Shown here in pieces: positions 3,085-19,906 of a DNA stretch of 64,000 bases. Origin of the DNA: an uncultured Actinomycetota bacterium (lineage in GTDB: Bacteria > Actinomycetota > Actinomycetes > CAVWCF01); NCBI GenBank assembly GCA_963697565.1, contig CAVOOM010000008.1:24965-88964 (forward strand), read 5' to 3'. Numbering within the stretch: the stretch's first letter is position 1; each line of letters opens with the position of its first letter. Below the pieces are notes generated by a model. The model saw only the letters and a list, made by a program, of their open reading frames with translations. It ran no database searches and was not told the DNA's origin. A program made the translations under genes and the position numbers.

Positions 3085-3255
3085 TAAACCGGTCCGACGG
3101 GCCGCCGACCCGGGTGGCCCGCGTCCCCCGTTACCGAATCGGGACCAGGAATCCGCGGCCTCCCGGACCGCTCCCGCGGGTAGCGGCCTACGGTGCCAGC
3201 AACGGCCGATCGCGGCCGCGCACTCGTAACCGAGGGAGACGACGTGGAACGACGG

Positions 3256-4908
3256 ATGGCTCGCCGGGGCCTGGTGGCCCTGGGCATGGCAGGGGCACTC
3301 GCCCTGTCGCTGGCGGCCTGCGGCGGCGACAGTGGCAGCGACGACTCCGGTGGGGGCGACACTCTTGGTGTTCGGCTCCTCCGCCGACCCGGTCATCCTG
3401 GATGGCGCCTACGTCAGCGACGGCGAGTCGCTGCGCGCGATCCGGCAGATCTTCGAGGGGCTGGTCGACACGGCCCCCGGCTCCACCGACATCGTGCCGA
3501 AGCTCGCCGAGTCCTACGACGCCAGCGACGACGGCAAGGTGTGGACCTTCAAGCTCCGCGAGGGCGTGAAGTTCCAGGACGGCACCGACTTCAACGCCGA
3601 CGGCGGTCTGCGCCAACTTCGAGCGCTGGTACAACTTCACCGGCCTCCAGCAGGCCGACACGGTCTCGTACTACTACCTGACCGTCTTCGGCGGCTTCAA
3701 GAACAACGAGTCCGACTCCCTCGGCGAGAGCCTCTACTCCTCCTGCAAGGCCGTCGACGACGCCACCGCCGAGGTCACCTTGACCCGGGCCTCCTCGACG
3801 TTCCTCAGCGCGCTGTCGCTGCCGTCGTTCGCGATGGCCAGCCCGGAGGCGCTTGAGAAGTACGGCGCGAACGACGTGGGCGGCACCGCCGACTCGCCGA
3901 CCTTCACCGGCACCTTCGGCACCGAGAACCCGATCGGCACCGGCCCGTACAAGCTCGACGAGTGGATCAAGGGCGACAAGCTCGTCTTGGTCCGCAACGA
4001 CGACTACTGGGGCGAGAAGGCGCAGATCGAGACCGTCATCCTCAAGCCGATCGCCGACGGCCCGGCCCGCCGCCAGGCCCTCGAGGCCGGCGACATCGAC
4101 GGCTACGACCTCGTCGACCCGTCCGACATCGACGCCCTGAAGGAGGCCGGCTACCAGCTGCTGAACCGCCCGGCCTTCAACGTCGCCTACGTCGGGCTTC
4201 AACCAGGCGATCAAGCCGCTGGAGGACGTCCGCGTCCGCCAGGCACATCGCCCATGCGATCAACCGCGAGAACGTCATCACGACGAAGTACCCCGAGGGC
4301 TCGAACGTGGCCACGCAGTTCCAGCCGCCGGAGGTCTTCGGCTACGCCGACGACGTCACCGAGTACGCCTACGACCCGGAGAAGGCCAAGGAGCCTGCTG
4401 GCCGCAGCCGGGCAGAGCAACCTGACCCTGGAGTTCTGGTACCCGTCGGGCGTCAGCCGTCCGTACATGCCAGACCCCGCGGCGAACTTCCAGCTGATGA
4501 AGGCCGACCTCGAGGCCGTCGGCATCACGGTCGTGCCGAAGACGGCGCCGTGGAACCCCGACTACCTCGACGCCGTCGACGGCGGCTCGGCTGCCATCTA
4601 CCTGCTGGGCTGGACCGGCGACTTCGGTGACCCGGACAACTTCATCGGCACCTTCTTCCAGGCGCCGCTGAAGCAGTGGGGCTTCGACAACCCCGAGATC
4701 TTCGCGGCCCTGGACGCGGCGGAGGCCGAGCCCGACCAGGCCAAGCGCGAGACCCAGTACCAGGACATCAACCGGCAGATCATGGACTTCCTGCCGGGCG
4801 CTGCCCTACGCGCACACCGAGCCGACGCTGGCCTTCGAGGACAACGTCGAGGGCTTCGTGCCCAGCCCGGTCACCAACGAGGACTTCTCGACCGTCTCGT
4901 TCAGCTGA
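3256..4908 (+). CDS. Peptide/nickel ABC transporter substrate-binding lipoprotein (family 5, DppA/OppA-like); six frame breaks as assembled
   Basis: Lipobox [27 protein letters not shown] blocks [65 protein letters not shown] and [14 protein letters not shown] lie in successive frames. Breaks near 3365, 3600, 4197, 4245, 4395 and 4800; stop 4906-4908. Confidence 0.8.
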
Positions 4909-4932
4909 TCGAGAGGGCTCGCTGATTCCTCG

Positions 4933-6913: not shown

Positions 6914-7911
<998 letters not shown>

Positions 7912-7915
<4 letters not shown>

Positions 7916-8948
7916 CCGATCACGTCCCCGCGCGAGGACGTGCTGCTCGAGGTCCGCGGGCTCGAGGTGCACTTCCCGATCCGCGACGGCATCCTCTTCG
8001 ACCGGCAGGTCGGGGCGGTCAAGGCCGTCGACGGGGTCGACCTCGACGTCGTGCGCGGGACGACCTTCGGCCTGGTGGGGGAGTCCGGCTGCGGCAAGAG
8101 CACGCTGGGCCGGGCCATCCTGCGCCTGGTCGAGCCGACTGCAGGCGTCGTCAAGCTCGACGGGGTCGACATCGCCTCGCTGAAGGGCGAGGCGCTGCGC
8201 TCGGCCCGCCAGCGGATGCAGATGGTCTTCCAGGACCCGATGTCCAGCCTCGACCCCCGCCAGAGCATCCAGTCGATCATCAGCGAGCCGCTGCGGGCCC
8301 ACGGGTTGGGCGGTGACAAGGCCGCCCTGCAGGCCCGGGTCCGCGAGCTGCTCGACATCGTGGGGCTGCCGACCAACGCCGGGTCGCGCTACCCGCACGA
8401 GTTCTCCGGCGGCCAGCGCCAGCGGATCGGGATCGCCCGGGCCATCGCGGTCAACCCCGAGCTGGTGATCGCCGACGAGCCGGTCTCCGCGCTGGACGTG
8501 TCGATCCAGGCCCAGGTGCTGAACCTGCTGGAGGAGCTGCAGGACCGAGTTGGGGCTCACCTACCTGGTGATCGCCCACGACCTGGCGGTGGTGCGGCAC
8601 ATCGCCGACAACGTCGGGGTGATGTACCTCGGCGTGCTCGTCGAGACGGCGTCCTCAGATGAGCTGTACGCGCGGCCGCTGCACCCGTACACGATCTCGC
8701 TGATGTCGGCGGTGCCGATCCCGGACCCGGTCATCGAGGACAGCCGCCAGCGCATCCTGCTCACCGGCGACCTGCCGTCGCCCGCCAACCCGCCCGCGGG
8801 GTGCCGGTTCCACACCCGGTGCCCGTTCCGGCAGGAGACCCGCTGCGACGACGAGCGGCCGGCGCTGCGCGAGATCCTGCCGGGCCACCACGTGGCCTGC
8901 CACTACGCCGAGGACGTGCTGGCCGGGCGGATCGGTCCGGGCCAGTAG
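7912..8948 (+). CDS. ABC transporter ATP-binding protein (DppF/OppF-like); two frame breaks as assembled
   Basis: ATG 7912 overlaps the upstream TGA (ATGA). Walker [10 protein letters not shown]; signature [14 protein letters not shown]; Walker [12 protein letters not shown]; then [13 protein letters not shown] and HPYT. Breaks near 7931 and 8545. Confidence 0.85.
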
Positions 8949-8966
8949 CCCGGACGGCGTCAGCAG

Positions 8967-10178
8967 TCAGCGGCGGGCTACGAGGTCGCGCGTGGCGACC
9001 CAGGCACGCCAGCCGTTCTCGCAGACGATGTGCGCCCAGCCGCCCCAGACCCGGTCGACGACGACGGGGAGAGCGGGATCCAGCGGCGCGACGGGCGCCT
9101 GGGCCGGATCGGGGGCCTCGTACGCCCAGCCGCCCTCGGCGCGCACATCATGCGTGGGCTGCCAGGTGGTGGTCTGGATGGGGGCGGCTGCCGGCGCCGC
9201 ATCGCCACCGGCCTCTCGCCCGGCTTCCAGCAGCCTCAGCTCGTCCTGGGTGAGGCACATCCCGAAGACCAGCCAGCGCAGGGTGGCCCGGTCGACCTCG
9301 GCCCACTCGAACGCCACGGGCGCCCCGGCGGGGGACACCACCCGGAACAGCAGGATCCGCTCGCCGACCCGGGTCGCCGTCATCGCCGTGTGCGCCGGCC
9401 GGCCGTCGGTGAACTCCGTCCGGCCGATGCCGACGACGGCCGTCGGGTCACCCGCCAAGGCCTCGCGGACGGCAGCCGACGGCGCCAGGCCGTCCGGCCC
9501 GCTGGTCGAGGTGGCCGCCGTCCACCAGCGTCGCGAGCGCCGCGTCGACCGCGGCGGGTCGTGGAGCGCATCGGTGTGCTCCGGCCCGGCGGCGATCGCG
9601 AACGGCAGGACGTAGCCGCGGATCCCCAGGTCGCGGGCGACGGCGGCGCGGACCCGATGCGGCGGTGAGGGGAACCGGGTCCTCACGCAGCGCGCGCAGC
9701 GCCGCGGCGAGCACGAATGCCTCGCCGGCGCCCCCGCGGAACCGGAATCCGGTGGGCGGCGGCTCGGGCCGGTCTCCGGACAGCGCCCCGACCAGCGTCA
9801 CGATCACCGCGGTGCGCGTCAGCGGGAAGGCCAACTTCGTCGTGCCGTCCGCGGCCACCGTGCACTCGGCCACGATCGGCCCGCGCCGCACGATCGAGAA
9901 GCCGGGGATCGCCGGGTCGCTCACGCCGACGTCGATCACCTCGTCTGGCCGGACGCAGGCGGCCAGGACGCCGCGGATGGCGAGGTTGACGCGCCAGGCG
10001 TCCCCGTCCGGGACCACCAGCCCCCGCGCGGGAGCGCATCCCAGCCCGGCTCTCCGGGCGCGAGCGGTCGGGGGAACTGCCGGACGACGCGCAACGGGGT
10101 CCCGGGCGCGGGGTCGGGGAGGCCGCCGAGCGCGAGCAGGGTGGCCACCTGCCAGTCGGAGAGCACGAAGGTCTGCAC
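8967..10178 (-). CDS. Hypothetical cytoplasmic protein: tentative EspG-like N-terminal region fused to a C-terminal SH3b-like domain; four frame breaks as assembled
   Basis: GTG 10178 lies 8 nt after the upstream stop, with GAGGGA between. Protein-like sequence alternates between two frames, with breaks near 10040, 9665, 9575 and 9500. The last 65 aa read WQPTHDVRAEGGWAYEAPDP...VWGGWAHIVCENGWRAWV. Confidence 0.5.
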
Positions 10179-10186
10179 GGGGTCCC

Positions 10187-13100
10187 TCACAGCGCGCCTC
10201 GGATCCAGGAGGCGGCGGCTCCGGCCGAGTGGTAAACGGCCTCCGCGGACTCGGACGCGAGCGCGGCGGCGCCCTCGGCCATCTCGGTGGCGAACCCGGA
10301 CACGCCGCTCTCGCCGATGCCGCTCGCGATCTCCGCGACGCCCTGCGCCACGGTGCCGATGAGCGGGGTACGCGTGATGGCGCTGACACTGGTGTCGACC
10401 GCCTCGGACCAGTAGTCGTCCCCGACCCCGTTGTCCCAGATCGACTGGCAGTCGTTGGCCACGTCGTTCATCCACTTGCTTGGGTCCACGATGACCTCCG
10501 CGGCGATGTTGGTGAGGTAGGCGATGCCCTCCAGCGGGGCGCCGTGCTCACCCCCCTCGACGGATGCGACGAAGGCATCGAGGCGCTCGTTGATCACCGC
10601 GGTGCCGGCCCCGGAGCTGCGGATCTGGTCCAGGTCCGACCACAGGCTGCCGCCGTCCGTGCGAGCCATCTCCTCACCCAACGCCTCACCGACCATCGCG
10701 TACCCCTTGAACGGATCGGTGCCCTCCCGGTTGGCGACGCTCTCGGCAAAGCGGTCGATCGCCTGGGTGTCCAGGCGGCCGGCGGCGAGGCTGTCGTGCA
10801 CCGCCAGCGCCGACGCCCGCGCCGCCTCGTAGCCGGTGCCTGCGAAGTTCTCCACGACCGCGTCCGGGAGGATCCCCCGCAGCTCGGTGGGGAGTAGCGC
10901 CTGCCCCACCAACGACGACCGCGGGTCGGCGACCCCCGACGCCATCGCCGCGTTGCCGGCCATCGTTTGGGCGGTCGCCACCACCGCCGCCTCGGTCGGG
11001 TCCAGGCCACGGCCGATGTTCTCCTCGGTGTGCTGGATGACCGTCCCGAGGTCGGAGACCGCCCCCAGCGTGCCCAGCCCCCGGGGGCCCACGATCGGTT
11101 CGCGCCACTTGGTGGCGGCCTCGAGGTTCGACGTCGCGATCAGGTTCGCCTTGTCGAGGGTGAGCCCCGGGATCTCGGGAACCGCTGCGCGCAGCTGCTG
11201 GTCGATCTGGCCCGGGGGGATCTCGCCGCGACCCGCGCGGTCGAGGACGTTGGTGAGTCGCTCGAGCCGGTCGAGCTTGGCCGGGTCGACGTTGGCGTCG
11301 GTGCGCAGTTGGGGCAGCAGCTTGGAGTTCAGGTCCTTCGCCGTGCCGCGGGCGATCTCCTGGTCAGCGGTCGCCTGCGTGATCACGCCGGTGTCGACGA
11401 GGTGCTGCAGGTGCTCGGCCTTGAAGCGGGTGACATCGGCGGTTTGCGCCGCCCACTGGGGGTCGAAGGGCGTCTTCGCCGGGTCGTTGGCCAGGACCGC
11501 GAGATCGCGGTACGCCTCCGGGTTCGTCGCCTGCGTCACACCCTGGAATGCCCGCTCGGCGTCCCCGCCGGTGACGGTCCGGTACGACCCCTCGTACACC
11601 ACCGATGCCAGGTCGTTCCACCTGCTCGGGGCCAGCGTCACGACCGTGCGCCCGGCGTCGAGGTCGGCCTGCACGCGGTCCAGCTGGCCCTGGATCCTGG
11701 CCGCCTCGGGTGAGCCCGCGGCCGCCTCCAGCTGCGCGCGCAGGGTCTGCGCCGCCTGGTTCAGATCGATGGTCATCCGGCCCTGCGCCTGCGCGGCCCG
11801 CAACTGCTCGGCCACCTCGATCGCCTCGGGCGAGCCCGGCTCCAGCCGAGCCAGCCGGTCGGCGAGCGCACGCACGCGGCTCTCGTTGAGCCCGACGTCT
11901 CGGTCCATACCCGAGGTGCCCCGGCTGCTCGCGTTGCGGAAGTCGAGGACGTCGCCCTCGGGTCCGCCGGTCCGCGTTTGATCGACGGTGAGCTCCCGCC
12001 CGCCCCGGCGGATCCCCATCTCGTTGAGCTTGTCGACGAAGTCGCCGTCGACGCGGTCGTACTCAGCGCGCAGCGCCGCGTCGTAGGCCGCCGCCGTCGG
12101 GCTGCGGCCCTCGGCCTTCAGGATCGACTTGGATTGGAAGTTCTCGTTGATCGCGATCGTCGTCGCCCGAAGCTGGGCCTCGAGGGTGGCGCGCGTGGCG
12201 TCGTCCAGCTCTCCGGCGAGGCGCGTCTGCAGGTCCTTGAACGTGTCGACCAGCCGCTGGCCCTGCACGCGTTCCTTGGTCCAGGCGAGATCCTTCTCCA
12301 GACGCGCCTCGGCCTCTGCCTGGGGCATCCACTCGCCGCCGTACTTCACGTTCCCCTTCCCGTCGGTGGGCAGCGAATCGATCCGCGGGTCGGTGATCGG
12401 CAGCAGCTTGGACGTGTCGACGGGGGTCCGCACCGGGTCGCCGGGGCTCCAGTAGTCGCGCTGCTCCTGCCCACCGCCCTCGCCTGCGGGGGTGGTCGCC
12501 GCGCCGGGCAGCGGCGGGACACCCAGGCCCTGCTCCAGCCGCCATCGGACGTACTGCTCGAACCCGTCCGGGTCCAGCGGGACCTCCGGGTGGGCCGCCT
12601 GGAAGTCGGCGTAGGCCGGGTCGTCCAGCAGCGCGTCGACCCAGTCGGCAAGCGCGGCGTCGCCGTCATCGGGGGATCCGGATGCGGCCAGCTGACCGAC
12701 CACCTGGCCGGCGAACGAGCCCGCGACGCCGCCGGCCGCGGCGGCGATGCCGCCGACCACAGCGGCCTGCTTGACGGTCTCCGAGCCGGCGCACGCGCTC
12801 CACCACTGCGACCAGGACTGGCCGCACTCGAAGTAGCCGCCGTCGTCGGCCCAGGCGGCCGTGGCCGAGAAGAGCGAATCCCACGCGCCAGCGGTTGCGG
12901 CGAGGGCGAGCAGGATCAGGGCCGCGGTCGGCGGGGGCGTGCGGGTGCGCGCGCTGAGCAGGAAGGCGGCGGCGGCCAGGCCGAGTGTGAGGGCGACCTT
13001 CAGCGCGGTGTCAGTCACGACGAAGGCGGCCGTGAGCGCGAACGCGGTGCCGAGGATGCCGACCGCGGTCGAGAGCATCCCGCTCTCCGGCGGCAGTGCC

Positions 13101-13654
13101 GACCTCGGCGAGACCCGGCCGAGGACCGAGTTGACCGCGCGGTAGGCGCCGCTCGACAGGACGTTGCCGACGATCGTCGGCAACGCGACCAGCACGCCGA
13201 GCGAGAGCACGAGCCCCAGCGACGGGCCGATGAGCAGGGCGGCGGCCATGCCGGCGGCCGCCCCCCACAGCAGATGGACGCGCGCGGTGGCCCCGTCGGC
13301 GCGCACCAGCGAGGCCAGTCCCTTGGGCAGGCCCCGCACGTCGCGCCAGAACCGCGGCCCGCCGACGGCGCGGCGGTAGCCGACGAGGGAGAACGCCAGC
13401 ATCGACAGCAGCGCCCAGAAGAGCGCGCCCTGCAGGAAGTTGCCCGGGCCGGTCGCGGCCGACCCCGGGAGCACCTGGGAGCCGTCGTAGCGCGCCGCCA
13501 TCAGCCAGACGTTGACGACGTAGCCGATCACGCCGGCGCCGATGGCGCTGGTCACGACCGACGGCACATGGCCGGCGGCCCAGCCCGGGAACTGGCGCAG
13601 GATCGCGGACAACGACTGGGGGTTCGGCCCGGCGGCAGGGGCGGAGGCGGTCAT
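10187..13654 (-). CDS. Large (1155 aa) polytopic membrane protein of unknown function: about 8 TM helices followed by a soluble domain of about 830 aa that looks helical
   Basis: Uninterrupted reading frame. ATG 13654 overlaps the upstream stop (ATGA). Hydrophobic helices fill the first ~320 aa (e.g. VVTSAIGAGVIGYVVNVWLMAA, FLQGALFWALLSMLAFSLVGY). The rest is Ala/Leu/Glu/Arg/Asp-rich with no catalytic motif I recognise. Confidence 0.7.
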   Translation of the reverse strand: MTASAPAAGPNPQSLSAILRQFPGWAAGHVPSVVTSAIGAGVIGYVVNVWLMAARYDGSQVLPGSAATGPGNFLQGALFWALLSMLAFSLVGYRRAVGGPRFWRDVRGLPKGLASLVRADGATARVHLLWGAAAGMAAALLIGPSLGLVLSLGVLVALPTIVGNVLSSGAYRAVNSVLGRVSPRSALPPESGMLSTAVGILGTAFALTAAFVVTDTALKVALTLGLAAAAFLLSARTRTPPPTAALILLALAATAGAWDSLFSATAAWADDGGYFECGQSWSQWWSACAGSETVKQAAVVGGIAAAAGGVAGSFAGQVVGQLAASGSPDDGDAALADWVDALLDDPAYADFQAAHPEVPLDPDGFEQYVRWRLEQGLGVPPLPGAATTPAGEGGGQEQRDYWSPGDPVRTPVDTSKLLPITDPRIDSLPTDGKGNVKYGGEWMPQAEAEARLEKDLAWTKERVQGQRLVDTFKDLQTRLAGELDDATRATLEAQLRATTIAINENFQSKSILKAEGRSPTAAAYDAALRAEYDRVDGDFVDKLNEMGIRRGGRELTVDQTRTGGPEGDVLDFRNASSRGTSGMDRDVGLNESRVRALADRLARLEPGSPEAIEVAEQLRAAQAQGRMTIDLNQAAQTLRAQLEAAAGSPEAARIQGQLDRVQADLDAGRTVVTLAPSRWNDLASVVYEGSYRTVTGGDAERAFQGVTQATNPEAYRDLAVLANDPAKTPFDPQWAAQTADVTRFKAEHLQHLVDTGVITQATADQEIARGTAKDLNSKLLPQLRTDANVDPAKLDRLERLTNVLDRAGRGEIPPGQIDQQLRAAVPEIPGLTLDKANLIATSNLEAATKWREPIVGPRGLGTLGAVSDLGTVIQHTEENIGRGLDPTEAAVVATAQTMAGNAAMASGVADPRSSLVGQALLPTELRGILPDAVVENFAGTGYEAARASALAVHDSLAAGRLDTQAIDRFAESVANREGTDPFKGYAMVGEALGEEMARTDGGSLWSDLDQIRSSGAGTAVINERLDAFVASVEGGEHGAPLEGIAYLTNIAAEVIVDPSKWMNDVANDCQSIWDNGVGDDYWSEAVDTSVSAITRTPLIGTVAQGVAEIASGIGESGVSGFATEMAEGAAALASESAEAVYHSAGAAASWIRGAL

Positions 13655-14410
13655 GTCCGCGCCTTCGGGCTTGGACCCAGCGCGATCAGCAGGCCGCCGA
13701 CGAAGGCGACGATGACGCCGAGGCCGACCGTGCCCAGCACGGTGGGGGCATCGGGGCCCCCGGCCGCGAGGGCGGCCAGGTTGCGCTGCACCTGCGCCAC
13801 GAACACGGTCGCGATGACGACGACGAGCCACCCGGCCAGGCGGCGGATCCTCCCCAGCGATGGACGGCTCGCGGCGACCAGTGCGACGACCGCGGCCGCG
13901 ACGAGGACCACCGCGATCGAGACCGGGCCGGACGACCCCGTCAGGTCTCCGACGAGGGCCTGCACCGGGAAGTCCGGGCTGCCGAACCCGGGAAGTCCGG
14001 GCAGCCGAAGCCACGGCAGGAGGGCCCCGACGACCACCGTGATGGCGCCGGCGAGCACCACCCCGAACCGGAGGCCTGCGGCCCCGCCCCGCGCCGACCC
14101 GCGCGCCACGATCTCCGCGGGGGTGCGGCCCTGCGGGTGCGCAGCGCTGAACACCGCGGCGTACGACCCGACCGGCCCGACCGCGCGACTGGTTGGGCCA
14201 GCGGCGCCAGGGCGACGAGAAGGCGGCGGCGTCGACCCAGCAGCCCCAGCCGTTGGAGCAGCGCACCTCCGCCCACCGGCCCCACGTGCGCACGAGCTGC
14301 ACGTCGAGGTGCGGGTCGAGCCGGGCGACCGCGGGCACACCCGGGTCTGGCCGCTCCCAGGCCTCTAGGCCGGTCGTGGGGACCCTGTGGGTGGCGGCGT
14401 ACTCGGTCAC
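13651..14410 (-). CDS. SH3b-like domain protein with four C-terminal TM helices; one frame break as assembled
   Basis: GTG 14410. N-terminus THRVPTTGLEAWERPDPGVPAVARLDPHLDVQLVRTWGRWAEVRCSNGWGCWV. After a break near 14180 the adjacent frame gives GLRFGVVLAGAITVVVGALLPW, VSIAVVLVAAAVVALVAA, LAGWLVVVIATVFVAQV and VLGTVGLGVIVAFVGGLLIAL. Stop 13651-13653. Confidence 0.6.
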
Positions 14411-14416
14411 GACGGG

Positions 14417-15424
14417 CTACCCGGTCGATCCGGACGCGGCCGGAAGCTGCGGGTCGGAGATGACATACCCGCCGGACCAGGCTCGCCCGGCGACGCCGAG
14501 CCGGAACACGCCCGGCTTGTCGAGGCACACCTCGACCTGGCCGCCGGGCGGGACCGTCTGATCTTCTGGGCCGCCTGTGATCGTGAGGTCCTCATCGCCG
14601 GTGTTGACCACCGGGACGCAGGTGCCGGCGGGGATCCGCACCCACCTCGGGTCGAAGCGGCCCGACCCCAGGTCGAACTGCGGCGTCTCCTGCGCGGGCG
14701 ACGTCGACCAAGGCCGGTGCCAGCCAAGCAGCACCACCAGTAGCCCGATCAGGGCGGCGGGCACGGCCCACCGGCCGATCTCGTCGAGCTGCTGCTTGCG
14801 CGCGAGCGGCCGGGCGGTCATCCAGCCGAGCAGCAGCCCGTACGGGATGTGCGCGGCGTAGGCGATCGCGATGACATCCCACTTGCCGGTGAGTCCGTAG
14901 TAGGTGGCAAAGGGCGTGACCAGGGTGGCCGTCTCCAGCACCATCGCCCAGACCACCGCCCACCACACGGGCCGCCCGAGGGCCACCGCGGCGTAGGCGA
15001 TGCCGAAGCAGATGCCGTTGGCGAAGTGGTACGTCCACCCGGCGAAGGCGCTCAGGTCGCTGGACGTGTTCGCATTGAGCAGGAGCACGCCGTACGACTC
15101 GATCGGGGCCAGCACCTGCCGCCCGCCCAAGACGAAGGGGACGCGGAAGAGGTCGTAGCCGATCGTGCCGAGCAGCCCTCCCAGCGAGCCCAGCGTCAGG
15201 ACGAGGCGCAGCCGGACGAAGGCCGTCGTGCGGAAGGCGACGACGGCGATCACCGCGATCGCGACGAGCGCGGGCAGGGTGACGCGCAGGAACCACGTCG
15301 AGAACTGACCGAGGCCGAAGACCCAGGCGAGCAGGGGCGCGACGTTGAGCAGGGCGAGGAGGGCGAGCCCTCCGGTGAGCCAGCCCTCGGCCGGCGACGA
15401 CAGGCCCGGCGAGCGCGCGGTCAC
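14417..15424 (-). CDS. Polytopic membrane protein with a C-terminal cupredoxin-like beta domain (function unknown)
   Basis: Intact 335-aa ORF with about 8 hydrophobic helices (GLALLALLNVAPLLAWVFGL, LPALVAIAVIAVVAF, WWAVVWAMVLETATLV). C-terminal FDPRWVRIPAGTCVPVVNTGDEDLTI...PPGGQVEVCLDKPGVFRLGV. Stop lies 6 nt before the next gene start. Confidence 0.65.
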   Translation of the reverse strand: MTARSPGLSSPAEGWLTGGLALLALLNVAPLLAWVFGLGQFSTWFLRVTLPALVAIAVIAVVAFRTTAFVRLRLVLTLGSLGGLLGTIGYDLFRVPFVLGGRQVLAPIESYGVLLLNANTSSDLSAFAGWTYHFANGICFGIAYAAVALGRPVWWAVVWAMVLETATLVTPFATYYGLTGKWDVIAIAYAAHIPYGLLLGWMTARPLARKQQLDEIGRWAVPAALIGLLVVLLGWHRPWSTSPAQETPQFDLGSGRFDPRWVRIPAGTCVPVVNTGDEDLTITGGPEDQTVPPGGQVEVCLDKPGVFRLGVAGRAWSGGYVISDPQLPAASGSTG

Positions 15425-15451
15425 CGGGGCGCCAGGTGGGTCGGGGCCATC

Positions 15452-16293
15452 TCAGAGTCCGTAGGTCTCGTTGGCGCAAGCCGCCGCGGCCGTCAGGACG
15501 ACGAGTCGCTCGACCGCGGTGTCGACGCGGTAGCCGCCGATCAGCCGGGTGAGCGTCGGCTCGTCCTCGGCGACGAACGACCCCACGACACCCGTGCCCT
15601 GAACGCCGTCGACGGTGCACTGGGTGGCGCCGAGGACGATCACGTCGGTGTACGGGTCGCCCAGTGCGGGGACCGCGTCGAGGACCCGCCAGACCGGCAC
15701 GGGGCCTTCGTACCGGGTGAGCTGCAGGTACCAGAACTGGAAGCCCTCGGGGGTGGACACCAGGGAGACGCCGCGATCCGGGGCCTCGAGCAAGGCCCCG
15801 CCGATCTCGGAGACGCCCTGCCCCGGGGCGGGATCACCGTCCCCGCGGTACTCCTGACCGATCCACCGCGCTGCTCCCGGCGTCGGTGACGGGGACTCCG
15901 AGGGGGTGGGCGCCGGGGTCGGGGCGGGGCTGGCGGTGGTCGTGCTTCCGGGTGTGGCAGAAGGCGATGGAGATGCCGTGGTGTCGTCGGGCCGGCCGAA
16001 GAACCAGAAGGCGCCGGCGGCCAGCGCCGCGAGGGCGAGGGCTCCTGCCGCGAAGAGTCCCCGGCGGGAGGTGCGGCCGGACGGCTCCGAGGGGCCCGGT
16101 GGGGCGGCCGCGCGGAGGCAGCGCGGGTGGCGGTCCGGTGGGTCCGGGCTGGCGGTCCGGTGGGTCCGGGTGGCGGTCCGGTGGGAGGCGACGGCCGCGG
16201 TGCGGTGTCGGAGGAGGACACGGGGTGTCCGCAGGTGGCACAGAAGCGGGCCCCCGCCGTTACGGCGTTGCCGCACGACGTGCAGAACGACAT
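15452..16293 (-). CDS. Zinc-ribbon protein with a proline-rich repeat, one TM helix and an extracytoplasmic C-terminal domain; two frame breaks as assembled
   Basis: ATG 16293. MSFCTSCGNAVTAGARFCATCGHPV carries two CxxC pairs. Then come PTGPPPG-type repeats, TM GLFAAGALALAALAAGAFWFF, a Ser/Thr/Pro linker, and a ~140-aa domain ending CANETYGL. Breaks near 16149 and 16110. Confidence 0.6.
16128..16185. repeat. Tandem 21-nt repeat tggcggtccggtgggtccggg, about 2.7 copies, inside the zinc-ribbon gene
   Basis: Copy 1 is 16128-16148, then a single extra c at 16149. Copy 2 is 16150-16170 and partial copy 3 is 16171-16185. On the coding strand the unit encodes P-T-G-P-P-P-G. Confidence 0.85.
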
Positions 16294-16429
16294 CGACCGC
16301 CTCCGCATCGAGCCAGCCACGGGTGAACCCTGGTTCTCACCCTTCCGCCGGGACCCGTGCGGAGGCAGGGCCCAAGGTCACGACCGGACCTGCGCGGGTT
16401 GGCGGCACGGACCACCGCGCCTTCGAGGG

Positions 16430-17026
16430 CTAGTCCCGGCTGACGAGGCGGGGCTTCGGCTCCAGCCCGGACAGGCCGTTCCAGGCCAGGTTGACCAGGT
16501 GCGCGGCGACCTCGGCCTTCTTGGGCTTGCGGGCGTCGAGCCACCACTGCCCGGTGAGGGCGACCATGCCGACGAGCATCTGCGAGTAGAGCGCGGCGTT
16601 CTTGGCGTCGAACCCGCGGGACTTGAACTCGACGCCCAGCAGGTGCTCGACCTGGCCGGCGACGTCGGACAGCAGGCTGGAGAAGGTGCCGGTGGACGAC
16701 CCGACGGAGGAGTCGCGGACCAGGATCCGGAAGCCGTCGGTGTTGGTCTCGATGTAGTCGAGCAGGGCGAAGGTGGCCTGCTCGAGCAGCACCCGCGCGG
16801 ATCCCCCGGTCAGCGCCGAGGTGATCCCGTCGAGGAGGCGCTGCACCTCGCGGTCGACGACGACCGCGTACAGGCCCTCCTTGCCGCCGAAGTGCTCGTA
16901 CACGACCGGCTTGCTGACCCCCGCGACGGCGGCGATCTCCTCGACCGAGGTGCCGTCGTAGCCCTTCTCGGCGAACAGCTTGCGGCCGACCTCGATCAGC
17001 TGCGCGCGCCGCTCCTTGCCGGACAT
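16430..17026 (-). CDS. TetR family transcriptional regulator
   Basis: ATG 17026 (a GTG at 17059 is an alternative). HTH TSVEEIAAVAGVSKPVVYEHFGGKEGLY; 198 aa. Lies directly downstream of the desaturase on the same strand. Confidence 0.85.
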   Translation of the reverse strand: MSGKERRAQLIEVGRKLFAEKGYDGTSVEEIAAVAGVSKPVVYEHFGGKEGLYAVVVDREVQRLLDGITSALTGGSARVLLEQATFALLDYIETNTDGFRILVRDSSVGSSTGTFSSLLSDVAGQVEHLLGVEFKSRGFDAKNAALYSQMLVGMVALTGQWWLDARKPKKAEVAAHLVNLAWNGLSGLEPKPRLVSRD

Positions 17027-17097
17027 CCGCCCGCGCGGTCGGCTCTCCCCGTCGCTCACCGGGCCATCATGCCTGCCCGTCCCCGCGCCGCCGGCGA

Positions 17098-18072
17098 TCA
17101 GGCGGCCGGGGCTCGGCGGGCGGCGAGGCGCTCCGGCTTGGGCCAGCGCACGTCGGTGGCCCAGCCGGCGCGCTCGAACCAGCGGATCACCCGGGCGCTG
17201 ATGTCGACCTGGCCGGGCTCGACGCCGTGCCGGGCCGCGGTGGGGTCGGCGTGGTGCAGGTTGTGCCAGGACTCGCCCAGCGACGGGATCGCCAGCCACC
17301 ACACGTTGCCGGAGCGGTCGCGGGACAGGAACGGGTGGCTGCCCCACACGTGGCAGATCGAGTTGATCGACCAGGTGACGTGGTGGACGAGCGCGACGCG
17401 CACCAGGCCGGCCCAGAAGAAGGCGGTCACCGCGCCCCACCACGACCAGGTGAGCAGCCCGCCGATGACGGCGGGGATCAGCAGCGAGCCCGCCACGAAC
17501 CACGGGAACATCCGCGAGATGCGGACGATGTCGCGGTCCTTGAGCAGGTCGGGGGCGTACTTGGCCTGCGAGGTCTGCTCGACGTCGAACAGCCAGCCCA
17601 TGTGGGCGTAGAGCAGGCCCTTGGTCAGCGCCCAGGTGGAGGTGCCGAAGCGCCACGGGGAGTGCGGGTCGCCCTCGCGGTCGCTGAACGCGTGGTGCTT
17701 GCGGTGGTCGGCGACCCAGCGGATGAGCGGGCCCTCGATGGCGTACGACCCGGCGACGGCCAGCCCGATCCGCAGCGGCCGGTTGGCCTTGAACGACCCG
17801 TGGGTGAAGTGCCGGTGGAAGCCGACCGTGATGCCGCCCGCCGCGATGACGTACGTGATGCGAGCAGCGCGAGGTCGAGCCAGCCCACGCCCCCAGCCCC
17901 AGGCGATCGGGATCGCGGCGACCACCGCCAGCAGCGGGATCGCGATGAAGAGGAAGAGGAGCACCCGCTCGGTCAGGCTCTGGCGGTCCTGCGAGAGGGT
18001 GCCGCGCGGGGCGGGGGCCTCGAGGTCGAGCGGGGAGGCCTCGAGCGGGGTGGTCTCGGGCGTCGCGGTCAT
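17098..18072 (-). CDS. Membrane fatty-acid (acyl-CoA/acyl-lipid) desaturase
   Basis: Intact 324-aa ORF. Three histidine boxes: HRHFTHG, HRKHHAFSD and HNLHHADP. Confidence 0.9.
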   Translation of the reverse strand: MTATPETTPLEASPLDLEAPAPRGTLSQDRQSLTERVLLFLFIAIPLLAVVAAIPIAWGWGRGLARPRAARITYVIAAGGITVGFHRHFTHGSFKANRPLRIGLAVAGSYAIEGPLIRWVADHRKHHAFSDREGDPHSPWRFGTSTWALTKGLLYAHMGWLFDVEQTSQAKYAPDLLKDRDIVRISRMFPWFVAGSLLIPAVIGGLLTWSWWGAVTAFFWAGLVRVALVHHVTWSINSICHVWGSHPFLSRDRSGNVWWLAIPSLGESWHNLHHADPTAARHGVEPGQVDISARVIRWFERAGWATDVRWPKPERLAARRAPAA

Positions 18073-18228: not shown

Positions 18229-18299
18229 TCCCGGGTCGTCTAACGGCAGGACAGCGGCCTTTGGAGCCGTGAATCGGGGTTCGAGTCCCTGCCCGGGAG
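18229..18299 (+). tRNA. tRNA-Gln (anticodon TTG)
   Basis: Hand-folded cloverleaf. Acceptor TCCCGGG/CCCGGGA; D arm GTCT-AACGGCA-GGAC; anticodon arm GCGGC-CTTTGGA-GCCGT; T arm CGGGG-TTCGAGT-CCCTG; discriminator G. 71 nt with no encoded CCA. Confidence 0.85.
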
Positions 18300-18411
18300 C
18301 CCAGCCGACCGCTGGACTGCCCCCGCGGGCCCCGGCCCGGTGGGTATCCTCGGCACGCCGACCAGCGGACGAGCCGCCCGCACGCCCGTCGCGTCCGACC
18401 CGAGGAGCCGC

Positions 18412-19906
18412 GTGACCGCCGCCCGCACCGCTCCGGTGGCCGCCGTGATCGTGCTGGCCGCAGGCGAGGGCACCCGGATGCGCTCGGCCACCCCGAAGGT
18501 CCTGCACGCGATCGGCGGCCGCACCCTGCTCGGCCACGTCCTCGCGGCGGCCGGGACGCTCGACCCCGAGCACCTCGCCGTCGTGATCGGCCACGGGCGC
18601 GAGGCGGTCGCCGAGCACCTCGCAGCGGTGGCCCCCAAGGCCCAGCCGGTGGTCCAGGAGGAGCAGCACGGCACCGGGCACGCGGTCCGGGTCGCCCTGG
18701 AGGCGCTGCCCCCGCTCACGGGCACCGTCGTCGTGGTCGCCGGCGACACCCCGCTGCTCACCGCCGAGACGCTGGCCCGGCTGGTCGGCCGCCCACGCGT
18801 CGACGCGGCGCGCTGCGCCACCGTGCTGTCGGCCGTCCTCGACGACCCCGCCGGGTATGGCCGCGTGCTGCGCGCCGCTGACGGCTCGGTGGCGGGCATC
18901 GTCGAGCAGAAGGACGCCGACGACGGCCAGCGCGCGGTCGCGCGAGATCAACAGCGGGATGTACGCGTTCGAGGCCGCCGAGCTCGCGGCGGCGCTGGCC
19001 GAGCTCACCCGCGACAACGCCCAGGGCGAGGAGTACCTCACCGACGTGCTGGGGATCCTGCGCGCGCAGGGCCGGCCGCGTCGCCGCGGTCGCCGCGGAG
19101 GACCCGCACGAGATCCTCGGCGTCAACGACCGCGCGCAGCTCGCCGAGGCCGCCCGGCTGCTGCGCGACCGGGTCGTCGGGCGGTGGATGCGCGAGGGCG
19201 TCACGGTCGTCGACCCCGCGACCACCTGGATCGACGTCGACGTGTCACTCGGCCCCGATGCCGTGGTCCAGCCGCACACCCAGCTGCTCGGGCAAGACGC
19301 TGGTTGCCGCCGGCGCCGAGGTGGGCCCCGACACCACCCTGCGCGACTGCCTGGTCGGCGAGGGCGCCCACGTCCGGCGCTGCGACGCCGACCGCGCGGT
19401 CGTCGGCCCGCAGGCGAGCGTCGGCCCCTTCACGTACCTGCGCCCCGGCACCGTGCTCGGCCGCGGGGTCACGCGCGGGCGCCTACGTCGAGCTGAAGAA
19501 CGCCGTCGTGGGCGAGGGCAGCAAGGTGCCGCACCTGTCGTACGTCGGCGACGCCGAGATCGGCGTGGGCTCCAACATCGGCGCGGCCACCGTCTTCGTC
19601 AACTACGACGGCGTGGCCAAGCACCGCACGACCATCGGCGACCACGTCCGGATCGGCAGCGACACCATGCTCGTCGCCCCCCTGGAGGTCGGCGACGGCG
19701 CCTACACCGCGGCCGGCTCGGTGATCACCGAGGACGTGCCCCCGGGGGCGATGGCCGTGGGCCGGGCGCGGCAGCGGGTGATCGAGGGCTGGGTCGAGCG
19801 CAAGCGCGGCGGGACGGCCTCGGCCGAGGCCGCCCGCACGGCCCGGGAGGCCGCAGGCCAGGATGGGACCCGCAGCGCAGGCGACTCAGGGGAGGCAGGG
19901 GAGTAG
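18412..19906 (+). CDS. glmU: Bifunctional UDP-N-acetylglucosamine pyrophosphorylase / glucosamine-1-phosphate N-acetyltransferase; four frame breaks as assembled
   Basis: GTG 18412. [35 protein letters not shown], then left-handed beta-helix hexapeptide repeats ([35 protein letters not shown]). Frames go 1>2>0>1>2, with breaks near 18945, 19075, 19290 and 19475. Confidence 0.85.

Follow-up and report, generated by a model that had tools for sequence, protein, structure and literature searches.

Polymorphic toxin modules, which join a constant N-terminal region to exchangeable toxin tails, are a known kind of system, and several of the routes by which they are deployed have been described. The subject here is a block of five genes, called A to E, on the minus strand of a 64,000-nt stretch of DNA from an uncultured Actinomycetota bacterium; that whole stretch, with a G+C content of ~73%, is referred to as the window. 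The block is probably a membrane-anchored polymorphic toxin module (we put this at roughly 0.65) with a new membrane-embedded trafficking domain, found at the N-terminus of the large product of gene D, and a dedicated membrane partner, the product of gene B. An earlier note on this DNA had called the block the best candidate for an undescribed system, with no assignable function. The N-terminal domain of D and the partner B are indeed previously undescribed, whereas a polymorphic toxin module as such is not, and the block can be given a function because the D family has a constant membrane domain, toxin-bearing tails and an Imm35 domain beside Tox-PL1.

Toxins associated with the type V (T5SS; CdiA/CdiI), type VI (T6SS; Rhs/PAAR) and type VII (T7SS; LXG/WXG) secretion systems resemble the D family in that a constant N-terminal trafficking region is followed by exchangeable toxins (LHH, Tox-PL1, ADP-ribosyltransferase (ART) and M91) with Imm35 adjacent. 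The difference lies in the N-terminus and its surroundings. No WXG, LXG or PAAR N-terminus was found in D with Pfam or NCBIfam, there is no Rhs, two-partner secretion (TPS) or signal-peptide N-terminus, and no known secretion apparatus lies nearby; D instead begins with an integral polytopic membrane domain without a Pfam family. The prePAAR effectors of the T6SS have one or two N-terminal transmembrane (TM) regions together with PAAR, depend on the T6SS and require an Eag chaperone before export. They share with D an N-terminal TM region on a toxin and a dedicated cytoplasmic partner, a possible analogy for a chaperone role of the partner core described below, but D has 7-8 TM helices, no PAAR and, at the Pfam level, no T6SS, and the hosts here are mostly monoderm. 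The SitA lipoprotein toxins of Myxococcus are anchored by lipid and moved by TraA/TraB-dependent outer-membrane exchange. They serve as analogy only, showing that a polymorphic toxin can be anchored in the producer's membrane and passed on by a membrane-based route; there is no homology, and SitA has no polytopic domain. The Streptomyces umbrella toxins (UmbC, UmbA/UmbB), said to have been described by Zhao and co-workers in 2024, are reportedly soluble secreted particles with ALF repeats and lectin spokes. By that description they are like the present module in being actinobacterial, with variable C-terminal toxins, accessory proteins and cognate immunity genes, and unlike it in that D is embedded in the membrane; neither a relationship in sequence nor anything like ALF repeats or lectin spokes was seen in D or its neighbours, for which no dedicated comparison was made.

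The nearest described concept is a predicted PrsW-peptidase-dependent class, mainly from Gram-positive bacteria, in which an N-terminal domain of ~8 TM helices is fused to diverse toxins (Zhang et al. 2012, PMC3482391). For its membrane domain a double role has been proposed, as a conduit and as the site of processing (PMC3482391). The likeness to D consists of the polytopic N-terminal domain and the diverse C-terminal toxins. A PrsW or CPBP identity was rejected for the N-terminal domain of D (8 members) and for B (51 members), as neither gave such a Pfam match at E<=5, and PDB profile searches with both were empty. The present family also differs from the PrsW class, whose peptidase family has four conserved motifs, in the motifs that it conserves, in its separate and obligatory membrane partner B, and in the downstream partners with SH3 or zinc-ribbon domains found here. 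Full-text literature searches turned up no description of the N-terminal domain of D, of B or of the SH3-tagged partners.

Layout and recurrence of the block

Read in order, with spacings of 27, 6, -4 and 8 nt, the block consists of the following genes (aa, amino acids; ORF, open reading frame).

Gene A, 16293-15452, minus strand: zinc-ribbon, Pro-rich stretch, single TM helix and ectodomain
Gene B, 15424-14417, minus strand: uninterrupted ORF of 335 aa, intact; ~7 TM helices, then an ectodomain of cupredoxin fold at the C-terminus (residues ~250-325)
Gene C, 14410-13651, minus strand: SH3b-like domain and 4 TM helices
Gene D, 13654-10187, minus strand: uninterrupted ORF of 1155 aa
Gene E, 10178-8967, minus strand: soluble, with a terminal SH3b-like domain

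The earlier note had given the same gene ends, strand, spacings and starts. The coordinates were confirmed, and all five starts match the N-termini of orthologues and other homologues (A, MSFCTSCG / MAFCSTCG; C, MTEYAATH / MNAGFVPTH; D, MTASAP / MTAPTP; E, (V)QTFVLSDWQ / VPTFILTDWQ). B and D are the only two genes that are uninterrupted; A, C and E are broken by frame changes. A mechanical ORF list contains a 1407-aa frame at 10187-14410 that is the SH3 part of C fused to D, the two being in the same frame by chance.

Recurrence of the genes elsewhere, one of the checks that had been proposed for the block, was borne out. Loci fetched for comparison carry L numbers below, and D-family proteins carry P numbers. 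All five genes occur in the same order in a metagenome-assembled genome (MAG) of Nanopelagicales (L027) and in the metagenome contig L025, and a JGI contig shows a corresponding series of five genes, as judged by sizes and order alone. The order B-C-D-E is found in an Acidimicrobiales MAG (L001), and the pair B-D occurs across phyla. The same gene order in unrelated genomes puts the arrangement far beyond chance. Neighbourhoods of the module differ between genomes, and neither an integrase nor a flanking tRNA was seen at the block, which fits the proposal that it is lineage-specific cargo. No component matched PADLOC, except for a low-complexity match of the Pro-rich region of A, and the module was not found on plasmids (PLSDB) or beside known defence genes. 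In the MAG of L028, Tad-pilus genes (CpaE-like, TadA ATPase, TadB/C and TadE; 7502-11388) directly follow the module; this was seen once, and the adjacency is probably unrelated.

A constant membrane domain with exchangeable tails

A word-index search with D returned nine relatives that have the N-terminal ~325 residues in common and differ in their ends, which include Peptidase_M91 and the Tox-PL1 glutamine deamidase. When a profile of the N-terminal domain was run against 1.84 billion representatives, it matched at least 428 cluster representatives, 173 of them at E<=1e-30; these are clusters at 50% identity, and the number is a lower bound. The domain lies at or near the N-terminus, starting within the first ~150 residues, in 150 of the 150 matches listed, in proteins of 120-1540 aa. 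The tails are highly diverse, 129 of them (each at least 80 aa) falling into 64 unrelated C-terminal clusters. Pfam searches on 57 representatives found LHH nuclease (at the extreme C-terminus of P0038), Gln_amidase (Tox-PL1), ADPrib_exo_Tox / ART, Peptidase_M91 and Peptidase_C39_2, as well as PG_binding_1 and a PI3/PI4-kinase-like match. In P0035 the PG_binding_1 domain immediately follows the N-terminal domain, which points to an extracytoplasmic destination of the tails. The kinase-like match (PI3_PI4_kinase, E 1.2e-6) occurs in one D-family tail and is unusual for a bacterial toxin tail. A RelA/SpoT-like toxin motif in the tail of the Cupriavidus protein was not backed by Pfam and was set aside. 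Most members of the family come from Actinomycetota, Streptomyces and Kitasatospora among them; a few are from Proteobacteria, and one MAG is labelled Bacteroidota. The family is present in both monoderm and diderm bacteria, and its distribution is patchy.

Secreted polymorphic toxins are recognised by C-termini that are hypervariable and come with cognate immunity genes (PMC3482391), and Imm35 is specifically associated with Tox-PL1 (Zhang et al. 2012, PMC3482391). Two D-family proteins that end in Tox-PL1, those of S. wedmorensis (L006) and of a Kitasatospora (L008), are each followed by a gene that starts with Imm35. A constant N-terminus with exchangeable toxin tails is the defining architecture of polymorphic toxins, and the D family, in which one N-terminus is common to many unrelated tails with recognised toxin folds among them, is therefore read as such. 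The protein encoded in the window can be divided into four regions.

N-terminal domain, 12680-13654, minus strand: residues 1-325, the constant membrane domain of the family
Post-membrane linker, 12398-12679, minus strand: residues ~326-419
Middle domain, 11090-12397, minus strand: residues ~420-855, alpha+beta
C-terminal domain with stop codon, 10187-11059, minus strand: residues ~866-1155

The earlier description of D as a polytopic giant is correct for the first ~325 residues and overstated for the rest, as the remaining ~830 residues are soluble. Family-averaged hydropathy and Lys/Arg counts give the N-terminal domain 7 clear TM segments followed by an acidic loop and a Gly-rich helix, which is probably TM8. 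In the family alignment the acidic loop carries the invariant motif A-x-ADDGG-x-x-EC-x6-W-x3-C-x-G with two invariant cysteines. The domain is modelled with confidence by AlphaFold2 (AF2; predicted local distance difference test (pLDDT) mostly >90), and sequence and profile searches gave it no Pfam match and no PDB match.

The linker begins with a small conserved helical segment, DWVDALLDDPAYADFQAAHP...FEQYVRWR, which is common to P0002, P0003 and P0005, followed by the PxxP-like motif VPPLPG and a disordered stretch; the AF2 model places helices at 333-374 (pLDDT ~80) and disorder at 383-414. In the D-family genes of L027 (~12000-13250) and L026 (~7000-8060) the N-terminal domain is followed by long acidic low-complexity repeats (PEGET or GEGE). 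Gene calls break at these repeats, which indicates that linker length is highly variable.

The middle domain is very well modelled (pLDDT 90-98). An alignment of 18 sequences shows 23 invariant polar residues, including D-x-x-D-x-R-N-x-x-S-x6-M-D-R-D, a motif that looks like an enzyme active site and makes the domain appear enzyme-like. It comes last in the Streptomyces and Kitasatospora relatives of L005, L010, L011, L015 and L017-19, and in L006 and L008 the position it holds in other relatives is taken by Gln_amidase (Tox-PL1). By this pattern it behaves as an exchangeable terminal module in the toxin position. The C-terminal domain of the window protein is acidic, Ala/Gly-rich and helical and is modelled with lower values (pLDDT 35-80). 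Tail clustering by BLAST and a map of hidden Markov model (HMM) matches show that it is an independent module, sitting on a different central region in P0003 and P0004. A pore-forming role was considered for it and rejected, the domain being acidic and without a hydrophobic hairpin of TM grade. Full-length D had no structural neighbour in PDB or BFVD by Foldseek.

Near the cytoplasmic N-terminus of D lies the motif R-x-[LFVI]-P-x-W (window 13588-13576, residues 23-25). Its proline is kept in 18 of the 19 loci that have SH3 partners, the exception being L026, and is missing in all 6 loci without them, a pattern that is confounded by phylogeny. The motif is possibly an SH3 ligand, which we offer as a lead only.

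The membrane partner B

Gene B was well modelled by AF2 from a 51-sequence alignment (pLDDT 94.3, predicted TM-score (pTM) 0.92). It had been described as an 8-TM protein with a cupredoxin-like tail; the cupredoxin fold was upheld by the AF2 model and Foldseek, and the TM count was revised to ~7 helices. The C-terminal domain is the Greek-key beta-sandwich typical of cupredoxins, and its Foldseek matches in PDB are cupredoxins only, namely 4hcf (Cupredoxin_1), 8vuk (FtrB), 5fc9 and amicyanins, with E values of 2e-4 to 1e-3 and TMt of 0.62-0.70. The TM part had no PDB neighbour among the Foldseek matches listed. A copper site was rejected, since the columns of the domain contain no conserved His or Met and the type-1 ligands (His, Cys, His, Met) are not present as a set. 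The domain does conserve C269 (in at least 90%) and an invariant C300, which more likely form a disulfide. A conserved polar cluster (D91, R94, S110, Y111, H133, N136, E164 and H192) would, from the positive-inside pattern of the loops, face the outer side of the membrane.

At least 217 homologues of B were found, none of which is named or has a Pfam family; among 51 members scanned, the only recurrent weak Pfam match was DUF6789, in 4. Paralogy between B and the N-terminal domain of D was rejected (hhalign probability 0.7%). Thirty fetched loci were scanned with HMMs, 24 of them distinct loci with usable upstream sequence, and in 20 of these 24 a homologue of B adjoins the D-family gene. Such loci come from Acidimicrobiales, Nanopelagicales, Ilumatobacteraceae, Streptomyces, Kitasatospora, Frankiaceae, Reyranella (Alphaproteobacteria) and the MAG labelled Bacteroidota. 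Seeding from B instead gave a D-family neighbour in three of three loci, two of them convergent. B is thus a constant, dedicated partner of D.

Two observations were made upstream of D-family genes or of B. In L002 (Nanopelagicales MAG JAWKJK010000001) a membrane-anchored multicopper oxidase with three cupredoxin domains (8428-9990) takes the place of B, with a gap of 10 nt to a downstream D-family gene whose product has Peptidase_M91 at its end; the oxidase could be there by coincidence or could substitute for B in function. Two Streptomyces loci (L005, 6100-6822; L006, 5987-6919) have genes for WD40-repeat proteins immediately before B.

The features of B invite a different explanation, in which B and the membrane domain of D form a housekeeping envelope complex, for example for metal or redox handling or wall biogenesis, and the tails are scaffolds or enzymes of the cell's own surface. 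The cupredoxin fold with the conserved His/Glu/Asp cluster, the multicopper oxidase of L002 and the lack of a toxin signature in the window's own D tail would all suit such a complex. It is nevertheless highly improbable, as the cupredoxin domain is without conserved copper ligands, relatives carry toxin domains of nuclease, deamidase, ART and peptidase type in their tails, with Imm35 beside Tox-PL1, the distribution is patchy and the context variable, and 64 tail types in 129 representatives are unlike a housekeeping enzyme.

The SH3b-like partners C and E and the accessory gene A

Genes C and E carry homologous SH3b-like domains of ~65 aa, and can be divided as follows.

C part 1, 14216-14410, minus strand: N-terminal cytoplasmic SH3b-like domain, first copy (SH3 HMM E 9e-30)
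C part 2, 13651-14215, minus strand: linker and 4-TM anchor, in a different frame from part 1, with a phase switch in third-position G+C (GC3)
E core, 9198-10178, minus strand: ~330 aa, soluble, without a signal peptide
E C-terminal SH3b-like domain with stop codon, 8967-9170, minus strand: second copy (SH3 HMM E 4.5e-30)

The earlier reading of C as an SH3b-like domain with 4 TM helices, and of E as a soluble protein with a second copy, holds, the SH3b-like parts by these HMM values. Neither window copy has a Pfam match at E<=0.1; the values of ~1e-30 are against an HMM of homologous copies, some of which match SH3_3 / SH3_4. Such matches are strong in a 59-aa protein of L026. In tblastn searches C of L001 aligns at 14407-14231 (frame -1) and 14112-13678 (frame -2), and E aligns in segments at 10169-10020, 10089-9685 and 9653-8982 in alternating frames. 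L027 has an intact orthologue of E.

The E core and the SH3-4TM gene C occur only in loci whose D-family protein has the C-terminal domain of the window protein, as mapped with HMMs. The E core was found in the window, L025, L027, L001, L028 and L026, and the 4-TM gene in all of these but L026. In all actinobacterial loci that extend far enough, an SH3b-like domain closes the gene downstream of D, while in the Bacteroidota-labelled and Cupriavidus loci the partner has zinc-ribbons in place of SH3; in L002 a zinc-ribbon stands directly before the SH3 of the partner. In these loci the type of downstream partner goes with the type of D tail. E is predicted to be a cytoplasmic partner, encoded where immunity genes normally sit.

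Extra SH3b-like genes lie beside the module in L001 (14009-14527), L013 (11224-11721) and L026 (11533-12905), and among them are the 59-aa stand-alone SH3, SH3 copies in tandem and a protein of 2 TM helices that ends in SH3. This suggests that SH3 may be a mobile docking module of the system. In the Bacteroidota-labelled MAG (L024, 11375-13975) the partner ends in two zinc-ribbons and has a sub-threshold match to EspG, a T7SS chaperone. This hint at an EspG-like chaperone was rejected, as the single sub-threshold match did not recur in the partner alignments A5 and A6. In Cupriavidus necator A5-1 (L023, 11413-14469), a locus without a B homologue, one reading frame downstream of the D-family gene joins Imm35 to at least 3 zinc-ribbons and to two domains (2 and 3) of the DNA polymerase III beta clamp. 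Homology between the E core of the window type and the partner core of the Streptomyces type was rejected (hhalign 0.2%), despite a resemblance in 'LPxPxxSPL ... PDxVV'.

Gene A encodes an N-terminal zinc-ribbon, a Pro-rich (PxGPP-like) cytoplasmic stretch, one TM helix, a Ser/Thr/Pro linker and a Cys-containing ectodomain. The earlier call of a zinc-ribbon, single-TM protein was right: the N-terminus has the two CxxC pairs of a zinc-ribbon, residues 3-25 match Pfam Zn_Ribbon_1 (PF13240; E 1.4e-6, 28.3 bits against a cut-off of 25), and the intact A of L027 has the full plan of zinc-ribbon, (PxGPP)n, TM helix and ectodomain. An HMM of the ectodomain matches only the window, L025 and L027. In L024 the gene after the partner follows an A-like plan of zinc-ribbons, Pro-rich stretch, TM helix and ectodomain. 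From its distribution A appears to be a lineage-specific accessory. For the five products together, Pfam, NCBIfam, PADLOC, a PDB sequence search and Foldseek gave only the zinc-ribbon and the cupredoxin fold, in agreement with the earlier statement that none belongs to a family of known function.

Frame changes and sequence quality

Three-frame translation places ~2 frame changes in gene A, near 16145 and 16085; gene C has at least 1, between 14216 and ~14170, and gene E ~4, near 10030, 9690, 9600 and 9540. Coding through these shifts is backed by the GC3 frame plot, by three-frame translations and by tblastn with intact orthologues. The changes raise the question of whether the module is a decaying, non-functional remnant in which A, C and E carry real mutations and which is dead in this genome. 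What speaks for decay is that the ~seven changes are confined to three of the five genes, with none in the 3.5-kb D or the 1-kb B. Several lines of evidence make it decidedly unlikely. GC3 stays >=0.9 throughout the shifted segments, and their translations are well conserved against intact orthologues, with no in-frame stops within segments. Flanking genes are split in the same way: the SBP_bac_5 gene (3230-4925) lies across three frames, and the ABC_tran and oligo_HPY parts of a DppF-like ATPase (7916-8948) and the NTP_transf_3 and Hexapep parts of GlmU (18244-19903) are in different frames. Since these housekeeping genes, including the essential glmU, are broken like A, C and E, the frame changes are most likely assembly indels rather than marks of pseudogenes, and the window seems to derive from an indel-prone assembly. 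The related contig L025, which is 92% identical and spans the entire block (window 16429-8933), is riddled with the same type of error, showing 85 gap positions against the window that are mostly single-base deletions in L025. It was rejected as a guide for indel repair, having ~70 single-base deletions of its own and some 'insertions' that break conserved protein segments; the intact orthologues of L027 and L001 were used for guidance instead.

Features at the upstream side of the block are given below.

Spacer, 16294-16429, minus strand: 136 nt separating gene A from the stop codon of the TetR gene that precedes it
TetR_N / TetR_C domains, 16433-17125
tRNA-Gln, 18229-18301: directly upstream of, and overlapping, the stop-to-stop frame that holds the glmU start, apart from the five-gene block

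The spacer possibly serves as promoter region. No feature was detected there, and a scan for promoters and terminators was uninformative for such GC-rich DNA.

Proposed working and the side of the tail

If the block is a polymorphic toxin module, D would be the toxin, its constant membrane domain carrying an exchangeable tail that here consists of the enzyme-like middle domain and the acidic helical C-terminal domain. The tail would be made in the producer and kept inert or export-competent by E; a neutralising role for E is suggested by its gene position, by the co-occurrence of the E core with the C-terminal domain of D and by the Imm35/Tox-PL1 pairs of relatives. More speculatively, cytoplasmic SH3 and zinc-ribbon modules might dock partners at the membrane, perhaps on proline segments such as the R-x-L-P-x-W of the D N-terminus or the polyproline of A and C. 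The N-terminal domain of D and B would anchor, process or translocate the tail, possibly at the ADDGG / two-Cys loop, so that it could reach the cell exterior and act on competing cells. This export step is suggested by the conserved B-D linkage and by the peptidoglycan-binding domain in the tail of one relative. A more far-reaching version is tentative and on present evidence rather doubtful: the N-terminal domain and B may on their own, and without an ATPase, make up a machine in the membrane for the export or presentation of large toxin tails, a delivery route common to monoderm Actinomycetota and some diderms, to which cytoplasmic SH3 and zinc-ribbon adaptors would couple chaperone or immunity proteins.

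Several points weigh against the toxin module. The tail of the window's D has no recognised toxin domain (Pfam, PDB sequence search) and no fold match in PDB or BFVD, and its toxicity would follow from the logic of the family. The Streptomyces-type partner core is the same for D proteins with a terminal middle domain and for those with a terminal Tox-PL1, with only Imm35 added in the latter case; that core, and E likewise, may act as chaperone or adaptor instead of conferring immunity. The module encodes no energy source, and Pfam and NCBIfam showed neither a secretion ATPase or signal peptide nor any gene of a known secretion system with it. A, C and E are frame-disrupted in this sequence. 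Finally, the side of the membrane on which the tail lies is ambiguous. With a membrane-spanning Gly-rich helix, the tail would lie in the cytoplasm according to the positive-inside rule and the two-Cys loop, while the PG-binding domain of P0035 suggests a tail outside.

A cytoplasmic tail is what would be expected of an intracellular conflict module, such as an abortive-infection system or a membrane-tethered toxin-antitoxin pair. The tail would stay inside the cell at the membrane, neutralised by E, until B or A sensed envelope damage or phage; its release or activation would then kill or arrest the producer. Along with the topology predicted if the Gly-rich helix is a true TM8, this explanation could draw on the predicted cytoplasmic location of all adaptors (the SH3 domains of C and E and the zinc-ribbons), on the lack of encoded export machinery, on the occurrence of the family in monoderms and diderms alike and on the ectodomains of B and A, which could be sensors. 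It is judged unlikely, because PG_binding_1 directly follows the N-terminal domain in P0035, PADLOC gave no match, the module is neither on PLSDB plasmids nor by known defence genes, and hypervariable C-termini with Imm35/Tox-PL1 are the mark of polymorphic toxins that are secreted. A toxin module directed at other cells thus remains the preferred reading.

Implications

Polymorphic toxins drive bacterial competition, and each new delivery route, be it T5, T6, T7 or umbrella particles, has opened a field. The constant part of the present family is a polytopic membrane domain with a dedicated partner, and the searches made found neither of them in Pfam, among solved structures or in the literature. 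If the toxin reading is true, the family would offer a way into the question of how actinobacteria, walled and often filamentous, use protein toxins when no secretion system is known for them. It would likewise supply dozens of candidate domains, for toxins and for immunity, that are still uncharacterised, the well-folded, enzyme-like middle domain of D among them, and an unusual case of cytoplasmic SH3b and zinc-ribbon modules serving as docking devices. The block probably represents a new means by which bacteria turn protein toxins on their competitors.

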